Source of the DNA: a bacterium
GTDB taxonomy: Bacteria; Zhuqueibacterota; Zhuqueibacteria; Oceanimicrobiales; Oceanimicrobiaceae
Assembly (NCBI GenBank): GCA_046757025.1
Contig: JBHHXN010000136.1
Location: 1 to 14,407 of the forward strand
Direction: 5' to 3'
Length of the DNA: 14,407 nt
The notes below the pieces were generated by a model that worked only from the letters and a program-made list of their open reading frames with translations, was not told the origin of the DNA and searched no databases. The first letter of the stretch is position 1, and every line of letters starts with the position of its first letter. The position numbers were made by a program, and so were the translations under genes. Shown here in pieces: positions 161 to 14,043 of this stretch.

Positions 161-1615
161 TCAATAATTGCCTTTTGGGGGTCTAAAAAAGTGCAGCACA
201 AAGATGAGCAGTCCATAAATTTCTAGTCGGCCCAACAGCATTGTAAAAGTCAGTATCCATTTTCCTGTGCCCGGTACGTGGCTAAAATTACTCATGGAAC
301 CCACCGTGCCCAGACCGGGCCCAACGTTGCCGGTGGTGGCCACGGAGGCGGAAAAAGCCGACAGCATGTCCATGCCGACGGCGATCAACCCAACTGAAGC
401 GATGAAAACGATTCCTAAATAGGCGATGATATACAGAATGCCCATGGATAGAACCTCATCCGGTACCGGATTGTTGTTGATGCGTACCGGAATCACCGCA
501 TGCGGATGCTGGATTTGCTTGATTTGTTTGGCCAGGGCTTTGAATAAAATAACCACCCGGTCGGTTTTTATGCCGCCGGAGGTCGAGCCGGTGCAGGCAC
601 ATTGCAGCGAAAAGAACAAAAGTAAAATTTGAGAGATTGGCGGCCATACCGATGAATCGCTGTTGGCAAAGCCCGTGGAAGTGCCTACCGAGACGATTTG
701 AAATGCGGAGTAGCGTAGCGCCTCTCCCCAGCTCTGGTAAGACGCCCCATGCACATCGATGGTTGCCATGAGCACGCCCACCATCATGGCTGCGAGGTAA
801 TATCTCACAACTGTGGATTTCCAGAGATTGCGGGATTTTTCGAAGACAGTGGCGAACAAGAGTGCAAAGTGAATTCCTGACAGTACCATAAAGATGAGGA
901 TGACGGTTTCCATGGCGAGATTGTTGTAATGCGCAATGCTGGTGTTTTTGGGTGAAAAGCCGCCGGTAGCGATGGTGGCAAACGAGTGCGTGACCGCATC
1001 GAACAGATTCATGCCGCAAAACATCAGGGCGATGGATTCCAGCACGGTTAAGCTGAGATAAATGGTCAACAAAACCTTCAATGTGGTCTTGGCGTTGTAG
1101 CGAAAATTTTCCCGCGCTAATTGCGACATTTCCATTCGGTATAAAACCAATCCCGCTATCCCTATGGAAGGCAGGACCGACAGCACAAACAGGATGATAC
1201 CGATGCCGCCGATCAGGTGTGTGGCGGAGCGCCAGAATAAAAGCCCAAGAGGCAGCGCCTCGATGTTGCTTAAAATGGTTGAGCCGGTGGTGGTGTAGCC
1301 GGAAACGCTTTCAAACCAGGCGTTAGTAAAAGTAAATTCGCCGCCCCAGAGCATATACGGCAGAGTGCCCGCAAGACAGGAAAGCAGCCAACTGGATACC
1401 ACAATAAACAATCCTTCGCGATTGGTAATGTAATCAGATGGCGGCACAAAGATGAGTGGAAACGCTCCGAACAACGCTGAAACCAGCGCGCTGTACAGCA
1501 GTGGAAAAGTGGAGGACTCGGAATTGAGAATCGAAATGATGGCGGAAATGAGCAAAAACAGCGCATTAAATAAAAGCACGAAGCCAACGTATCGTAAAAC
1601 GACATGCAATCTCAT
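161..1615 (-). CDS. trkH: Trk-system potassium uptake membrane protein TrkH
   Basis: 484-aa polytopic membrane protein with four pore-loop motifs (ESVSGYTTTG, FATIATGGF, VGTSTGF, TTGNVGPG), the GSTSGGIK..R intramembrane loop and a C-terminal MLLGRLEI. Confidence 0.95.
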   Translation of the reverse strand: MRLHVVLRYVGFVLLFNALFLLISAIISILNSESSTFPLLYSALVSALFGAFPLIFVPPSDYITNREGLFIVVSSWLLSCLAGTLPYMLWGGEFTFTNAWFESVSGYTTTGSTILSNIEALPLGLLFWRSATHLIGGIGIILFVLSVLPSIGIAGLVLYRMEMSQLARENFRYNAKTTLKVLLTIYLSLTVLESIALMFCGMNLFDAVTHSFATIATGGFSPKNTSIAHYNNLAMETVILIFMVLSGIHFALLFATVFEKSRNLWKSTVVRYYLAAMMVGVLMATIDVHGASYQSWGEALRYSAFQIVSVGTSTGFANSDSSVWPPISQILLLFFSLQCACTGSTSGGIKTDRVVILFKALAKQIKQIQHPHAVIPVRINNNPVPDEVLSMGILYIIAYLGIVFIASVGLIAVGMDMLSAFSASVATTGNVGPGLGTVGSMSNFSHVPGTGKWILTFTMLLGRLEIYGLLIFVLHFFRPPKGNY

Positions 1616-2376
1616 TGTTGCGCCTCAGGTGTTTCGAGAAGCGCACACAGCGTTTTGATGGCAAAAACTAAATCCTGAAACTCATCTTGGCTCTCGATCT
1701 CAATCTCGAAGGGCACCTTGCGTTCGACAAATTTCTTCACACGTTTGGTGATCTTGACGATGGGATCGGTTACATAGAAATGAACAAAATAATTGAAGAT
1801 CAGAGTAAAAATAAGCGCGGCGACGATGGCTACCACGCCGGGCATGATGGCACGGTTGGCGCGATTTTGCAGCTTAGAAGCGGTTCCGTAAATGCTTTGT
1901 TCGTTTAGAAGTAACAATTTATGGACCGCCGCCTTCACATCAGAGAAGGCGCGGTGCATTTGGGCAAAATACCAGTCCAGGTCGCCTTGCTTGTTCGTTC
2001 CAACGATTGGCCTATCCCAGAGCTCTTTGTAGATCTGGTAAGTTGCTTTTATGGAGTCGAGGTGTGCCGCTTCGCCTGGAATAGTGAGATTTTGTTGTGC
2101 ATTTTTGAATTCATCTTGAAAGGCGCTATCCGCCTGAGTTAGAATGTTGCGGCCCTGCTTCCAGTTTCCGGAGAGCAGCAATAAAATCGCGCTGTCCTCT
2201 CTTTCAAGCGCTGCCATCATCTTGTTGGCCATGTTGATGCTTTTATAGTTTTCATTCAGCAGTTTGGGCACAGAAGTGCCAAGCGAGGTGATTTCATAGA
2301 TTGACCAGACTCCGGCGATCAATAACATGGTGGCTAAAATCAGAAATCCAGATAAAATCTTTAAACGCAAGCCCAT
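1612..2376 (-). CDS. Membrane sensor-like protein: TM + extracytoplasmic four-helix bundle (4HB_MCP-like) + TM + HAMP, with no output domain
   Basis: 254 aa with two hydrophobic segments (ILSGFLILATMLLIAGVWSIY; IMPGVVAIVAALIFTLIFNYF) and a HAMP signature (VTDPIVKIT...IEIESQDEFQDLVFAI). The protein ends right after the HAMP domain. GGAG SD upstream; the stop overlaps the trkH start (ATGA, 1612-1615). Confidence 0.85.
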   Translation of the reverse strand: MGLRLKILSGFLILATMLLIAGVWSIYEITSLGTSVPKLLNENYKSINMANKMMAALEREDSAILLLLSGNWKQGRNILTQADSAFQDEFKNAQQNLTIPGEAAHLDSIKATYQIYKELWDRPIVGTNKQGDLDWYFAQMHRAFSDVKAAVHKLLLLNEQSIYGTASKLQNRANRAIMPGVVAIVAALIFTLIFNYFVHFYVTDPIVKITKRVKKFVERKVPFEIEIESQDEFQDLVFAIKTLCALLETPEAQQ

Positions 2377-2996: not shown

Positions 2997-5030
2997 TTAC
3001 ACAGCTTCCTGTATATTATCGCGGTCTAATTCCTTCCGAATGGCGTTGGCTAAATTTTTGGGTGAAATGGGCTTGGGCACGAAGCCGCCGGCGCCCAACG
3101 ATATGGCTTCTTCGACTCTTTGTGAAACCGCAAATCCGGAGAGAATGATGGCTTTCTGGGTGGAATTGTATTTTAATATCTGCCGGTAAGTCTCGGCGCC
3201 ATCGATGCCATCCATCACCATATCGAGGATGACCAGATCGTGGGGCGTATCCTGCACAATTTTCACCGCCTCTTCGCCGCTGGTCGCTACGCTCACCTGG
3301 TACCCCAGGCGCTGCAAAAGATGGCTGGCCACCTCTCTTTGCACGGGGTCATCATCCACAACCAGAATGCGTTCTCCCTTGCCTTCTAACATGGTCGAGC
3401 TTTCGGGTAGTTCGCTTTCTGCAGTTCGATAGACTGGGAAATACAGTGAAAAAGTCGTGCCTTTGCCGAGCTCGCTGTCGATGGTGATGTAACCTTCGTG
3501 ATCCTCTATGATACCATGTACGATACTCAAACCCAGCCCGGAACCGCGCATGCGATCCATCTTCTTTGTGGTGAAAAAAGGATCGAAAATTTTGTTAAAG
3601 ATTTTGGGTTCAATGCCAGTACCCGTGTCTGTTATTTCAGTTTTCACATATTCACCGCGATTGACCGTTTGATATCTTTGCAACGGTTCCTCCAGATAGA
3701 CATTTTGGGTTTTTACAGTCAGCACCCCCAGCCCTTGCATGGCTTCTTTGGCATTGATGATTAAATTGGTAAAGGCGCGTGTAAGCTGAGCTCCTCCCCC
3801 TTTTATCTTCAGAATTTCTGAGGTGAAATCCGTATTCACCACCATTCCGGGAGGCAGTTTCAGTGAATTCAAAATGGTCTGTAGCAGGTCGTTTAAATCG
3901 AGTACCTCCATGCTGTAATGACCGCGTCGGCCCAAAGCGAGCAATTGCTGATTTATTTCGGCGATTTTGTTGGCAGCGGCCTCGATGTCGTCCACCAGCT
4001 CCAGCGCGGAATGCCCTTTGGGCAAATCTTCGCGAATCAGAGTGGGGTAAGCTGTTAGAGGCGCTAGCAGGTTGTTAAAATCGTGGGCGATCTGGCCGGC
4101 GACCAATCCAGCCGTTTCCAAGCGTTGTGAGCGGGCGATTTCATTTTGCAAGCGTTTGCGTTCGGTGATGTCGCGCACCACCACTTGACCGGCGGGTTGG
4201 CCGTCGTAGATGATAGGGATGGCCACGACCTCCACCTCCACCTCCTTGCCATCTTGCTGCCGCACGATGTTATTTTCAAAATAAGAAACCTCGGTGCCTT
4301 TTTCCAGTATTTCTCGCACATGGGTTTTCAAGGCAGTTCTGGTTTCCGGTTTGATGAAATAGAAGACCGGCTTACCGATGATGGCTTTTGCGCTGCTGGC
4401 CCCGATGAGTTTGATGCCGGCTTCATTCACATAGACCCATTTGCCGCCGCTGTGCACCGCGATGGGAACAGGTGAAAATTTGATCAAACGGCGAAATCTT
4501 TCCTCGCTTTCTCGCAGTGCTTTCATGGCTGCTTTTTGCTCGGTGACATTGCGCGCGATTCCTCGCACAGCCGCGGCCTGGCCATTTTTCGTGATCAGGG
4601 AATTGCGAAATTCAAAAACAGAGTCCTGCCCATCCTTGCTCGTCAGGTGGAAATGTCCGCTGGTCTGACTTCTCTGGCTGATTTCTTTTAAATAAAGTTC
4701 CACATCTTTATGGTATTTTGGAGCGATGATATCTTTCAGTGTTTTACCGATCAAGTCTTTTTTGTCATAACCGAGAAATTGACTGAGGGCGGCATTGATT
4801 TTCAATATTTCGCCATCGAGGGAATGGATGTACACGATATCGGAAACGTTATCGAACAGGTCACTGTATTGTTTTTCGCTCTTGCGCAGCTCAGCCATCT
4901 TCTCTTTTTGTGCGGCAAGAAATCGACGTTGACTGGAAATAATGATGAGGATCATGCTGGTGCCCAGCATCAACAAAACTATAGTGCCGACGATAAAAGC
5001 CCACCATAATTCAAACGATGGTGAAAACAA
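2997..5030 (-). CDS. Hybrid sensor histidine kinase (1 TM, PAS, PAS, HisKA, HATPase_c, REC; NtrB/CckA-like)
   Basis: Single N-terminal TM helix; two PAS-PAC repeats ending RNVTEQK and RDITERK; H-box IAHDFNNLL; N-box NLIINAKEAM; G1 DTGTGI; F-box FDPFFTTK; G2 GSGLGL; receiver ILVVDDD...LVILDMVM...FVPKP. TTG start with AGGAGG 6 nt upstream. Confidence 0.95.
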   Translation of the reverse strand: MFSPSFELWWAFIVGTIVLLMLGTSMILIIISSQRRFLAAQKEKMAELRKSEKQYSDLFDNVSDIVYIHSLDGEILKINAALSQFLGYDKKDLIGKTLKDIIAPKYHKDVELYLKEISQRSQTSGHFHLTSKDGQDSVFEFRNSLITKNGQAAAVRGIARNVTEQKAAMKALRESEERFRRLIKFSPVPIAVHSGGKWVYVNEAGIKLIGASSAKAIIGKPVFYFIKPETRTALKTHVREILEKGTEVSYFENNIVRQQDGKEVEVEVVAIPIIYDGQPAGQVVVRDITERKRLQNEIARSQRLETAGLVAGQIAHDFNNLLAPLTAYPTLIREDLPKGHSALELVDDIEAAANKIAEINQQLLALGRRGHYSMEVLDLNDLLQTILNSLKLPPGMVVNTDFTSEILKIKGGGAQLTRAFTNLIINAKEAMQGLGVLTVKTQNVYLEEPLQRYQTVNRGEYVKTEITDTGTGIEPKIFNKIFDPFFTTKKMDRMRGSGLGLSIVHGIIEDHEGYITIDSELGKGTTFSLYFPVYRTAESELPESSTMLEGKGERILVVDDDPVQREVASHLLQRLGYQVSVATSGEEAVKIVQDTPHDLVILDMVMDGIDGAETYRQILKYNSTQKAIILSGFAVSQRVEEAISLGAGGFVPKPISPKNLANAIRKELDRDNIQEAV

Positions 5031-5617
5031 ACAAAGCCTCCTGCGTAAAATAAATTTGAAATGATATTCAACAAGGAATGGTGAAAGGACCAGTTACCGA
5101 TGAGGTTGCTGAGTGCGAACGAAAGCAAGTTGCCGGTGAAATAGATCAACACTGCGGAGGCCACCCAAAAACGCTCATCCCGAAAAAGGGATTTCATACT
5201 TTCTCTGTGCACCTCGTACATGGTTAGCGCCGCAATGCCCACCAGAAACACGCATTCGAGTGAGGCGGTGTAATTATCTGGTTGATCAAACTTCTCAAAA
5301 AATATCTTTGCAATGATCCAAATTACCGCAAACATCAGAATGCTCAACCGCAGCACTTTTTTAAACACGACGTTTTTCTGCCACGATGAAAAAATTAAAA
5401 CCAGAAAACAGTATTCACCCAAAGTGTAGAAATGATACAACCAGATATTGGGGGCTTTAAATAATATCAAATAATGGCCGATGGAATCGATGAAGAAACC
5501 GAAGATAAACATATAAAGAAGAAGCCTCAACTGCAAATTCAACCGAGGAAATTTGTACAGGCCACAGAATATGGGGATCAGGCAGGTTAAGGATGAAAAG
5601 TAATCAAAATAGCTCAT
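4979..5617 (-). CDS. Uncharacterised 7-TM integral membrane protein, probable receptor/accessory subunit of the adjacent kinase
   Basis: 212 aa with about 7 hydrophobic segments and intramembrane polar residues (D44, NIWLYHFY..GE68, FWVASAVLIYFTGN, LLNIISN). Its 3' end overlaps the kinase start by 52 bp. Confidence 0.8.
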   Translation of the reverse strand: MSYFDYFSSLTCLIPIFCGLYKFPRLNLQLRLLLYMFIFGFFIDSIGHYLILFKAPNIWLYHFYTLGEYCFLVLIFSSWQKNVVFKKVLRLSILMFAVIWIIAKIFFEKFDQPDNYTASLECVFLVGIAALTMYEVHRESMKSLFRDERFWVASAVLIYFTGNLLSFALSNLIGNWSFHHSLLNIISNLFYAGGFVCFHHRLNYGGLLSSAL

Positions 5618-5752
5618 TTTAACTACATTTATCTCGATTTAGCAACATTGTGCGACAAAAAATATAAAAAGCCTTTAGCGGTCGTAAAATGATTCCCACG
5701 AACAAATAAAATCTCAAGAATCTAACAATCTTCGCAACTTCTTCAAAGTTTC

Positions 5753-5781
5753 AATATACAATTTTCAGACCCATTTGTCAA
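5753..5781 (-). promoter_or_regulatory. Near-consensus sigma70 promoter for the 7TM-kinase pair
   Basis: Minus strand TTGACA (5781-5776) - 17 nt - TATATT (5758-5753), about 135 nt upstream of the ATG at 5617. Confidence 0.7.
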
Positions 5782-5856
5782 ATTAAATTAATGTTTTTTA
5801 CGCGGGGGGCATTCTGCGCAGAGCTGCGGTTATCAAAAAACTATCGAGATAAAGGT

Positions 5857-5973
5857 GCCTCCGATACACAAATACGACTAATTCTTTCTGCATCCAGCAC
5901 ATTTTTCAAAATGTCACTCTCAGCGAAACAATTGTTATTGAGTTAATTAGCAGTATTTATTGGCATCGGAGGC
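5857..5973. repeat. Degenerate MITE-like remnant
   Basis: GCCTCCGAT (5857-5865) and ATCGGAGGC (5965-5973) form a perfect inverted pair that extends imperfectly to AAATAC/GTATTT. The internal GTCACTCTCAGCGA (5913-5926) is 12/14 identical to GTCATTCTGAGCGA (2443-2456). Confidence 0.4.
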
Positions 5974-6040
5974 TTGAGCTAAATGTTAAAGTTATTTAAT
6001 TCAAATGTCCTCGTTATTTCCAATTTGATACAATGAACCA

Positions 6041-6496
6041 TTAGAAATTGGAAGACAATTCCATGCTCAGCAACGGACTGTTTAAATCGTTATCTTCCGG
6101 ACAGTAAGGTGGGCACATGGCGCTGCGCTGTGCCAGCAATCCGTTGATCATGTCGTTACCGTTTTTGTCCACACCCACTAATACGATATGCGGCAGTCCA
6201 TCCTTATCCAGACCGTAATAGTATCTCAGACCCACGGCGCCGTCTTGCTGTAAAATGTTGATGATGGCGTTTTTGCCAAAATAGCCGCCAATTACCTGGT
6301 TGGGAGTAATTTGTTTTTGAAAATTCGCGGTCAGCTCACTGGCCTCAGAAAGCGAAATCGAATGATCTTCCTCACCGTTAAATTTCACTTGCGGCATCTC
6401 TTCTTTTGTAAAAATGTCCGAATAGGTGAATACTAAAAAGGCACAGCTTACAACGATCATCAGATAAACGAAAATGGATTTTCTTGAAAATAACAT
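6041..6496 (-). CDS. 151-aa exported/membrane-anchored hypothetical protein with a C-terminal CPPYC motif
   Basis: GGAGGT lies 5 nt before the ATG at 6496, a better start than the TTG at 6556. The N-terminus is basic then hydrophobic (MLFSRKSIFVYLMIVVSCAFLVFTY). A compact alpha/beta domain follows (ISLSEA..., GYFGKNAI..IL.Q.G..GLRYYYGLD...IVLVGVD..GND), then SAMCPPYCP. Confidence 0.85.
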   Translation of the reverse strand: MLFSRKSIFVYLMIVVSCAFLVFTYSDIFTKEEMPQVKFNGEEDHSISLSEASELTANFQKQITPNQVIGGYFGKNAIINILQQDGAVGLRYYYGLDKDGLPHIVLVGVDKNGNDMINGLLAQRSAMCPPYCPEDNDLNSPLLSMELSSNF

Positions 6497-12400: not shown

Positions 12401-12551
12401 CATCAGGAAATTCCCCAATTTGAATGATCTACCTGACATAATAAATTAATAATTTGGGAGTGATGCATTGAAAAAAGCTTGTAACTTACTTATAAAAAAT
12501 CCGGCCTTTGACATTTATTTCTGTAAATGATATTTATTCAGGAGAATGCGA

Positions 12552-14043
12552 ATGAAAAAGAGTCCAAGAAGACGGTTTTTCGAGAGAATGTTCCTGGTAT
12601 TTGTTGTGGCCTTTATTGTTATGTCTCTATGGTCGCATTCTCGATACGCGCCTCCAGAGGGCGTCGTACCGGAAGCGTTTGAGAAGACTTATGTGCCAAC
12701 CGCTTTGATTGCTGATCTGGACTATATGTTCGCAACCTTTGAAGCGGTGCATCCAGATCTCTATTTTTATACCCCGGCGGAAACGTTGCTGGCGTTGAAG
12801 AACCGACTGGCTACGATACTTGACCAGCCCATGACTCGGAAGGAATTCTATCCCGTGGTGGCCCGGCTGGCGGCCGCTGTCGGCGATGGGCATACAGTGG
12901 CCATTGCGCCGAGGGAGGAAATTGGACATGATTCCGACCAAGGCGGATTATGGTTCCCGTTCGAACCTGGCAACTTCAGCGAACGCGGTTTGCAGGTGGA
13001 AACCATTTATCTGGAGAATTGTCCGATTCGGCCCGGGGACTGGATTACTGCTGTCAACGGCATCCGGTGGATTCCCTGTTTCAGGTATTTCGGTTGACCA
13101 AGAGCGGAGAAAAGAGGTTCTACCGTGAGGATCGGACATTGCGAAATTTCGACCTCGACCTCACGCCTTTCCGGGTGAAATGACGCTCGCATGAAACCGC
13201 CACCTTGAACGACGTCACCACCGAACAGATCCGCAGCTTCCGGCAGCAAAAGAAAACCACAATTCCGGACTACGCTTTCCAGCGCCTTTCCGACAGCGTC
13301 GGCCATCTCGATTTCCGACGGATGCATGATCTGGAAAAGTTCGAAACCTTTCTCCAGGAGACGTTCGACGAAAAACAGCGCCGGCCGATTCAGGGCCTGA
13401 TCATCGATCTGCACAAAAGCGGCGGCGGTGCCACTTCGTTGGGGCACACCCTCCTGTCCTACATAACGGATAAACCGTATCGTATGATTGCCCGCATGGA
13501 AGTGAAAGTCAGCAAGCAAAAAGAAAGAGACCTTAGGAAATGATACCCACTTGGTTTCGCTGGATTCCGCTGCCGTATCTGCATCCCATGGGACGGAAAA
13601 TCTGGGGAACGCCGGAAGGGGACAACGTGGTGTGGTAAATTGAGCTCGAGCGACCGCCGGAAAATCCTTTACGATATCGCGGCCCAGTGTGCATCCTCAT
13701 CGGTACCCGTACATTTTCCAGCGCGCAAAAACTGACCAATGCCATCAAAGATTACCGGCTCGCCACGCTCATCGGTGGGGAAACCGGCGGCAACCCCTAT
13801 GCGTTTGGTGAAATGTATCTGTTTCGACTGCCCAATACACGGCTCGAACTGGGAATCTCGACCAAACGCGATGTGCGGGCCAACGGCGACGCCCACTGGC
13901 AGCGCGGCATTTTACCAGACATTGAAGTGAAGCCGACACTGGCGGATTTGCAGACGGGCGGAGACATGGTGTTGGAATTCGCCAGAGAATGGATTCGGCA
14001 GCGGGCGGCATCCAAAACCAGCCTCGCGTCCCTTGAGCCCTGA
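12552..14043 (+). pseudogene. Disrupted exported S41-family (tail-specific/CtpA-like) peptidase with a PDZ-like segment
   Basis: GGAG SD then ATG at 12552 and a signal/TM segment. Motifs HPDLY, GDGHT, IRPGDWITAVNG, LIIDLHKSGGG, TFSSA, IGGETGG and RGILPDIEV are spread over four pieces. Lesions: frameshift near 13064, in-frame TGA at 13181-13183, frameshift near 13540, in-frame TAA at 13636-13638. Confidence 0.85.

Follow-up and report, generated by a model that had tools for sequence, protein, structure and literature searches.

A putative signalling module made of a CPPxC protein, a stand-alone seven-helix protein and a one-helix histidine kinase

The stretch of DNA analysed here, called the window, is the 14,407 nucleotides (nt) of contig JBHHXN010000136.1 (assembly GCA_046757025.1). 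It contains three co-oriented genes on the minus strand, located where an earlier note on this DNA had placed a candidate three-part cell-surface signalling system. These encode, in the direction of transcription, a small protein with a Cys-Pro-Pro-x-Cys motif near its C-terminus (the CPPxC protein), a stand-alone seven-transmembrane (7-TM) protein and a hybrid histidine kinase. In relatives, the tail of the CPPxC protein is exchanged together with the 7-TM gene between loci that are otherwise nearly identical. The explanation favoured below, which is given an even chance of being correct, is that the CPPxC protein is an allele-matched protein ligand whose tail is read from outside, the 7-TM protein its receptor and the one-helix kinase the transducer. 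The features of the locus are the following.

6041..6496, minus strand: gene of the CPPxC (here CPPYC) protein, 151 amino acids (aa), ATG at 6496 and stop at 6041; GGAGG lies 6 nt 5' of the ATG.
6101..6130, minus strand: variable tail of the CPPxC protein, residues 123–132 including CPPYC; in relatives exchanged together with the 7-TM gene.
5753..5781, minus strand: match to a sigma-70-type promoter, TTGACA, 17 nt, TATATT (11 of 12 positions), 136 nt before the 7-TM start; a consensus match only.
4979..5617, minus strand: gene of the stand-alone 7-TM protein, 212 aa, the candidate receptor.
4979..5030, minus strand: overlap of the 7-TM stop with the kinase start, 52 nt; AGGAGG and the TTG start are inside the 7-TM gene.
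2997..5030, minus strand: gene of the hybrid histidine kinase, 677 aa, start TTG at 5030; AGGAGG lies 6 nt 5' of the TTG.

The CPPYC gene and the 7-TM gene are separated by a 423-nt spacer, which holds the sigma-70 match. This match is likely a separate promoter for the 7-TM and kinase genes, and because the spacer carries it the three genes may form two transcription units in this genome. The same site is present in loci L021 and L022 and absent from L023, L024, L032 and L040, i.e., it is found in 2 of 6 related spacers examined (loci are designated by L and genomes by G). A search of the spacers for repeats gave only short two-copy matches. Both input genes are single-copy in their own genome, where tblastn shows no paralogues.

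The kinase has about 8 residues before its single TM helix, followed by two PAS domains, HisKA (His316), HATPase_c and a receiver domain (REC, Asp603), an architecture similar to that of CckA. It thus has no extracellular sensor of its own, as the earlier note had observed. No regulator or Hpt gene is adjacent to it. An AlphaFold2 model of the 7-TM protein displays seven long helices and a short C-terminal helix, with a mean predicted local distance difference test score (pLDDT) of 94.4 and a predicted TM-score (pTM) of 0.90. The model bears out the description of a 7-TM protein without a cytoplasmic domain. Its gene overlaps the kinase start, again as the note describes. A frameshifted fusion of the 7-TM protein and the kinase was considered and rejected; the kinase gene has its own ribosome-binding site and the overlap is conserved.

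The predicted arrangement of the seven helices is similar to that of G protein-coupled receptors (GPCRs) and rhodopsins. This similarity is one of fold only and carries no inference of descent or function. The 50 structural matches listed by VIA are all GPCRs, GPCR-like proteins or microbial rhodopsins, except two with uninformative titles. The best is a designed GPCR-like fold (Z 13.5, root-mean-square deviation (rmsd) 3.6, 193 residues aligned), and a GABA-B receptor also matches (Z 12.9, rmsd 4.9, 207 aligned). The range is Z 10.6–13.5 over 187–209 residues, near a level that can be reached by the arrangement of a helical bundle alone, and Foldseek gave E values of 0.05 or worse. The topology is predicted to be N-out, with basic residues on the loops that are cytoplasmic in that orientation in 138 of 138 alignment rows. 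Polar positions N57, E68, Y159, H180, N184 and N188 are conserved at 64–82%.

The 7-TM family is very large, with 14,767 clusters at 50% identity in a profile search. It appears to consist of stand-alone proteins: the best 150 of the 14,767 matches are all 179–262 aa long, and no fused forms of 458–2000 aa were found among 7,994 scored candidates, although this second result is weak evidence. There is no credible Pfam or NCBIfam match in 94 members. Three assignments were tried and rejected. A microbial rhodopsin is not compatible with the absence of a lysine at residues 176–196 and of any conserved lysine in the 94 rows. YhhN, the automatic name of one Atlas cluster, was matched at E 0.01 by 0 of 94 members in a comparison with the Pfam YhhN family. 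HisKA_7TM (PF16927) was likewise matched by 0 of 94 members at E 0.01, and the 7-TM protein is not fused to a kinase; a structure match in the Atlas gave a TM-score of 0.42 over 95 residues, which is under the bar.

The order of the genes is conserved beyond chance. A 7-TM gene follows the CPPxC gene at 75 of the 79 named genome loci; two of the others end at a contig edge, one has the reverse order and one has no 7-TM gene. These named loci are from the best 80 of 148 confirmed matches and lean to close relatives. By record title they belong to Bacteroidota, Ignavibacteria, Calditrichota, KSB1, Gemmatimonadota and other taxa, and the named close homologues of the window's CPPxC protein are from KSB1 and Calditrichota. 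In metagenome loci, a 7-TM gene is present in 50 of 50 with at least 900 nt of room and in 20 of 29 short ones; 1 of the 80 gave no profile match. Among 41 related genomes the CPPxC gene is found in 19 and the 7-TM gene in 20, with both in 18 by these searches; in the 19th genome with a CPPxC gene, a 7-TM gene is present in the locus sequence. In a sample of 301 genomes of the phylum to which a Fluviicola genome belongs, the 7-TM gene is found in 68 (about 23%) and the CPPxC gene in 39, and all 39 are within the 68 when the two result tables are compared by eye. Plasmid and phage collections gave no match in tblastn searches with one CPPxC domain each. The flanks are heterogeneous, and no recurrent protease or exporter is found among 71 flanking genes scanned.

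A kinase gene was found after 59 of the 75 ordered loci, 55 co-oriented and 4 convergent, and in 53 of the 59 the kinase has one helix. The remaining 16 comprise 8 with too little sequence and 8 where none was seen. In 97 of 105 modules the kinase helix begins no more than 60 nt away from the stop of the 7-TM gene. The 61 downstream genes scanned encode HATPase_c in 53 cases, HisKA_3 in 33, HisKA in 10, PAS in 17 and a receiver domain in 13, and 67 hand-picked following genes have a receiver in 63 cases and GerE in 61. The pair of CPPxC and 7-TM genes precedes kinases of the HisKA_3, HisKA/PAS and hybrid types, in most cases together with a NarL-type regulator, which agrees with the earlier suggestion of a portable three-part input cassette. 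The window carries a leader-bearing, hybrid-kinase version of this module, without a linked regulator.

There are several variations in gene number and order. Two or three 7-TM genes in a row follow one CPPxC gene in L073, L139, L142, L147 and L161, possibly as receptors for several alleles. Two or three CPPxC genes in a row precede one 7-TM gene in L047, L048, L080, L093, L087 and L103; in L080 one copy has a leader and one does not. A leaderless subtype with two CPPxC domains in tandem is found in L033, L034, L036, L037, L039, L070, L075, L086, L087, L094 and L103, and in several of these loci the kinase and the NarL regulator run convergently to the CPPxC and 7-TM genes, on the other strand. 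In L046 and L078 the kinase encoded 3' of the 7-TM gene is divided between two reading frames.

The CPPxC protein of the window has a hydrophobic N-terminal segment at about residues 7–25, a putative signal peptide or anchor, followed by a folded alpha/beta domain at about residues 37–140. The tail motif is Q123-x4-C128-P-P-Y-C132, and the C-terminal extension places 19 residues after CPPYC. The domain model is compact, with about 105 residues and a pLDDT of 89.9, and the motif sits inside the fold. Sequence searches place this domain in no named family and structure searches give no clear match: there is no credible Pfam match in 99 members and no Pfam or NCBIfam match for the window's protein, profiles of the CPPxC and 7-TM families have no matches in sequence searches of the PDB, and Foldseek has no match at E 0.001. 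The best PDB structure gave Z 3.2 with an rmsd of 4.2 over 51 aligned residues. R91 is invariant, and C128, P129 and C132 are 97–99% conserved in the near family; the residues in and around the five-residue ring that the two cysteines could close are variable. Of 99 aligned members, 82% have a third cysteine, at the position of Ala87 in the window's protein, and 66% have His45.

The Cys pair is dispensable in that some clades lack one or both cysteines in intact modules. The clade of L238, L250 and L262 has the Cys-less tail LPDPPNSS, in which an acidic residue, the prolines and an NxLNS end are retained. In distant Bacteroidota the gene 5' of the 7-TM gene encodes proteins of up to about 316 aa, lipoproteins among them. 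A motif [DEN]-x4-X-P near the C-terminus is nevertheless found in 48 of the 56 partners detected by profile and in 14 of the 19 other genes at this position, compared with 40 of 345 control open reading frames (ORFs); 5 of the 80 loci of this survey had no qualifying upstream ORF. In an unfiltered search (Z 25), 10 of the 19 diverged partners match the CPPxC family at E < 0.02; a profile comparison of the family with the lipoprotein-like partner of L172 gave a probability of 6% and an E of 0.006. Common descent of all upstream partners is only suggested by these similarities.

Export is not a uniform property of the family. In 162 CPPxC genes, a hydrophobic leader is present in 39 and absent in 120, and 3 touch an edge. 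The 120 leaderless genes comprise 74 with an in-frame stop at most 15 codons from the domain and 46 that are open and non-hydrophobic. The earlier description of a small exported protein that ends in a Cys loop is thus correct for this genome as regards the leader, but it does not extend to the family, and the loop is near the end of the protein rather than at it.

The earlier note had further proposed a split version of agr logic with a five-residue ring peptide. In such a scheme, the CPPxC protein would be a precursor that is cut and cyclised to a five-residue Cys ring autoinducer. The near-invariant C128, P129 and C132 with variable residues in and around the ring are in favour of this scheme, a small peptide would ease membrane crossing, and genome G011 retains only a tail-like remnant of the CPPxC gene. 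The motif, however, is part of a 105-residue domain that has a conserved core and a confidently predicted fold, and Cys-less tails are found in intact modules. The agr endopeptidase/cyclase AgrB (PF04647) was found in 0 of 5 genomes (the window's at 94.8% complete) and in none of the 71 flanking genes; 14 control genomes also gave none over the cut-off, i.e., the search has no positive control. There is also no linked peptidase, and the kinases are of HisKA_3 or HisKA type with NarL regulators and not of the HPK10 and LytTR types. A ring peptide is therefore considered very unlikely.

A comparison of closely related loci shows that the module has a mosaic structure. Between L066 and L092, DNA identity is 95% in the CPPxC core, 96% in the kinase core and 98% in the regulator, whereas it is 67% in the tail, 44% in the 7-TM gene and 46% in kinase codons 1–60. 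The two 7-TM proteins are 15% identical, between flanks that are 95–99% identical. The extent of the exchanged block differs between pairs. In L066/L071, L104/L105 and L104/L118 the tail and TM1–5/6 are swapped and TM7 (95–100%) and the kinase helix (93–100%) are retained; in L066/L071 the swap covers TM1–6, with TM7 at 95% and the kinase helix at 100%. In L079/L249, L104/L111 and L134/L151 the swapped block runs through the kinase helix. In several independent clades the left edge of the divergent block lies inside the CPPxC gene, immediately ahead of the tail; in the exchanged tails the variable positions change and C, P and C are kept.

The same pattern is seen in a set of 20 close pairs, reduced by hand from 47 through the removal of identical and redundant cases; these pairs are not independent. 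Tail identity correlates with TM1–5 identity at rho 0.72, compared with 0.21 for the tail's own core and 0.13 for the kinase core. Since the tail follows TM1–5 and hardly its own core, it looks like the specificity element of the CPPxC protein. Kinase-helix identity correlates with TM7 at rho 0.79 and with TM1–5 at rho 0.72. This is in line with the earlier proposal of the 7-TM protein as receptor and the kinase helix as transducer, which the two parts look like. Overlap, synteny and co-exchange together make a partnership of receptor and kinase through the single helix very probable.

The window's own relatives are too distant for this analysis, and the mosaic test was made within its clade, with L021, L206 and L207, where a milder form of the mosaic is seen. 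L021 and L206 are 88% identical in the CPPxC leader and 94% in the core, with 100% identity in the tail, the spacer and residues 1–140 of the 7-TM protein. L021 and L207 differ by one tail change, with 85% identity in 7-TM residues 1–140 and 99–100% in the kinase.

A variable tail followed by a variable 7-TM gene is also reminiscent of the loci of polymorphic toxins, in which a variable C-terminus precedes a variable downstream gene. The tail could be a toxic tip, the 7-TM protein its immunity partner and the kinase a passenger. The variable part spans only about 10 residues, TM7 and the kinase helix are exchanged together, and a one-helix kinase and NarL regulator follow in most loci, all of which make a toxin/immunity pair extremely improbable. 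In the allele-swapping clade of L066 and L092, a ThsB TIR-like gene and DUF6088 genes flank the module (L066:5133-5708, L066:8531-9133 and L092:8478-9080), hinting at a variable or defence-island setting.

If the CPPxC protein is a ligand, the variable Cys/Pro tail would be read by the 7-TM protein at the outer face of the membrane. Through its single helix, which would be in contact with TM6–7, the kinase would receive the signal from the 7-TM protein, and its autophosphorylation would be switched. The alleles would act like pherotypes, with a putative role in recognising self or kin. In this genome the Sec-type hydrophobic leader would bring the ligand to the periplasm, free or anchored. The two PAS domains may add cytoplasmic inputs, and the phosphoryl group would move first to the receiver of the kinase itself and then to an unlinked relay. 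Leaderless forms could reach the receptor by leakage or lysis, through a putative exporter, or as a clipped tail peptide that is released.

Several results weigh against this explanation. The tails of L250 and L262 are 89% identical while TM2–4 drop to 16–50%, and those of L047 and L048 are 89% identical with 7-TM proteins at 30%. Divergence of the 7-TM protein is not concentrated outside (45% for the outer half against 40% for the inner half, 21 pairs). Linkage by itself accounts for a part of the correlations because tail, 7-TM gene and kinase helix are physically adjacent. Inter-protein covariation, one of the checks proposed earlier, was not above shuffles in 138 paired rows (best z 5.3 against 4.2–5.5), and at this alignment depth no residue-level signal is detectable; a mirror-tree analysis gave r 0.40, a value confounded by common ancestry. 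A complex prediction of the 7-TM protein with the CPPxC domain from 138-row alignments scored 0.02 against a mark of 0.32, with controls that did not fold, and is not used as evidence. Finally, the weak step is delivery to the receptor for the leaderless majority. Although the orientation of the receptor is constant, 120 of the 162 CPPxC genes have no leader, and most ligands would start on the wrong side. A folded protein of 11 kDa is not expected to cross an intact outer membrane easily, and the 71 flanking genes scanned include no conserved protease or exporter.

Some of these results would suit a 7-TM protein that diversifies under outside pressure from a phage, a toxin or an environmental ligand, with a tail that hitch-hikes by recombination between conserved flanks. 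Variation over whole helices instead of the outer half, the near-constant tails beside divergent 7-TM proteins in L250/L262 and L047/L048, and the 29 of 68 genomes in the phylum sample with a 7-TM gene and no profile-detected CPPxC gene are consistent with this. It is at odds with the position of the block edge, which is inside the CPPxC gene before the tail in several independent clades, with the retention of C, P and C, and with the motif-bearing upstream gene in 14 of the 19 7-TM genes that have no profile match. A hitch-hiking tail is regarded as rather improbable.

In another explanation, the CPPxC protein would permanently form part of the receptor of its own cell, as an accessory subunit or plug, and the stimulus would be displacement, proteolysis, or the redox or metal state of the cysteines. 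LiaF/LiaS, SaePQ/SaeS and CpxP/CpxA are precedents for subunits of this kind. Co-variation would then result from an interface shared by the tail and the 7-TM protein. The leader in the window and in 39 of the 162 relatives could anchor the protein beside the receptor, and some partners are lipoproteins. The third cysteine and His45 are a possible metal or redox site, and such a subunit agrees with the absence of linked processing or export genes among the 71 scanned. It gives no reason, on the other hand, for alleles that are 15% identical between near-identical genomes, and it would put leaderless and exported forms on opposite faces of a receptor of fixed topology. Cys-less tails also exist, and receptor, kinase and regulator are intact where the CPPxC gene is decayed or missing (L120, L121). 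An accessory subunit is thus a possible explanation, though a doubtful one.

At L120:6600-6881 (minus strand), in L121 and at L039:8560-8844 (minus strand), the CPPxC gene next to the genes of the 7-TM protein, kinase and regulator is decayed or missing. In G011, which is 96% complete, the frames of the 7-TM protein, kinase and regulator are present and the CPPxC gene is reduced to its tail-like remnant. The second module of G005 has no CPPxC gene alongside; there is one elsewhere in the genome. Orphan receptors fit either a signal received from others or a dispensable accessory protein.

The ligand explanation can be extended to a widespread diderm self-recognition system with a new-fold ligand and pherotype-like alleles, in which the leaderless majority serves as an allele-specific damage alarm that responds to the cell's own leakage or to lysis of kin. 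This extension is unlikely; if true, it would represent the bacterial equivalent of alarm cytokines that lack a leader. Most known peptide or protein pheromone systems with specificity groups come from Gram-positive bacteria. An allele-matched ligand would extend systems of the pheromone type to Bacteroidota, Ignavibacteria, KSB1, Calditrichota and Gemmatimonadota, here with two families that are both very large and without a name. It would also provide a minimal bacterial receptor of GPCR fold with its candidate ligand encoded next door, in which ligand recognition and kinase coupling are directly testable. Natural allele sets (L066/L071/L092, L104/L105/L111/L118 and L021/L206/L207) supply cognate and non-cognate pairs.

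Elsewhere in the window, two imperfect inverted repeats that can form hairpins are located at 2446-2543, in the spacer 3' of the kinase gene. Positions 1612-2376 (minus strand) encode a two-helix protein of 254 aa that combines a 4HB_MCP_1 sensor with a short HAMP-like end and lacks an output domain. It is another stand-alone sensor piece, and its gene overlaps the start of a TrkH gene (161-1615). A peptidase S41-like gene at 12546-14043 (plus strand) is broken into three parts, which are in different frames or separated by stops, and represents a pseudogene or assembly errors.

Full-text literature searches gave no paper that describes the module in its title or in the opening of its abstract; subscription journals are largely uncovered by this search, and the supplements of PMC13581589 may list members without naming them. 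That paper reports in general terms that sensors of the 7-TM GPCR fold fused to prokaryotic kinases are known. HisKA_7TM (PF16927) is similar to the module in that a GPCR-like seven-helix bundle is tied to histidine-kinase signalling, but it is fused to the kinase and the 7-TM protein described here is stand-alone. Sensory rhodopsin II with HtrII and Anabaena sensory rhodopsin with its soluble transducer are examples of a stand-alone 7-TM receptor with a separate transducer helix or a small co-encoded protein, as is proposed here. The module differs in the absence of the TM7 retinal lysine, and its predicted output is a directly coupled histidine kinase.

UhpC-UhpB-UhpA, LiaF-LiaS-LiaR and SaePQRS are accessory-sensor systems, and UhpC is a transporter-like protein of the major facilitator superfamily (MFS). 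We know of no allele-swapped ligand-receptor block in any of the three. The module resembles them in having a sensorless kinase beside a separate membrane protein, often with HisKA_3 and a NarL-type regulator (for LiaFSR, PMC11237479). No match to UhpC, LiaF, SaeP or SaeQ is present in 94 7-TM sequences (Pfam and NCBIfam) or 99 CPPxC sequences (Pfam only). Control of kinase activity by the membrane partner is suggested in the module only by the gene overlap and by the way in which TM7 and the kinase helix are exchanged together.

The agr system (AgrBDCA) of staphylococci has a multi-helix sensor, a Cys-containing ligand and allele groups. The module has a multi-helix membrane sensor, a Cys-containing candidate ligand and allele groups as well. 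The AgrD propeptide is about 45 aa in length, with a Cys four residues ahead of the cleavage site, and yields a thiolactone peptide in the medium; the module instead has a folded domain of 105 residues whose cysteines are dispensable in some clades. Furthermore, the sensor is not fused to the kinase, the kinases are not of the AgrC/ComD (HPK10) type and the regulators are NarL and not LytTR, following the family placement in PMC8895600.

ComQXPA of Bacillus subtilis, as described in PMC6334282, has a self-made signal gene beside a membrane sensor and a two-component pair, and comQ, comX and the 5' end of comP represent the polymorphic block that defines Bacillus pherotypes. A polymorphic block of putative signal and sensor between conserved flanks is likewise found in the module. 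Here, however, the sensor is a separate 7-TM protein, predicted to be GPCR-like, the candidate signal is a folded domain of about 105 residues, and the kinase type varies. ComP is a fused multi-helix sensor; the kinase of the module has one helix in 53 of 59 cases. No ComQ-like isoprenyl transferase is present among the 71 flanking genes, the gene order leaves no slot for one, and the hosts are diderm. The logic of an accessory sensor and that of a polymorphic block are thus both known, from UhpC/UhpB and LiaFSR and from agr and ComQXPA, and the module, which falls outside each of these systems, has two input families that are as yet unnamed.

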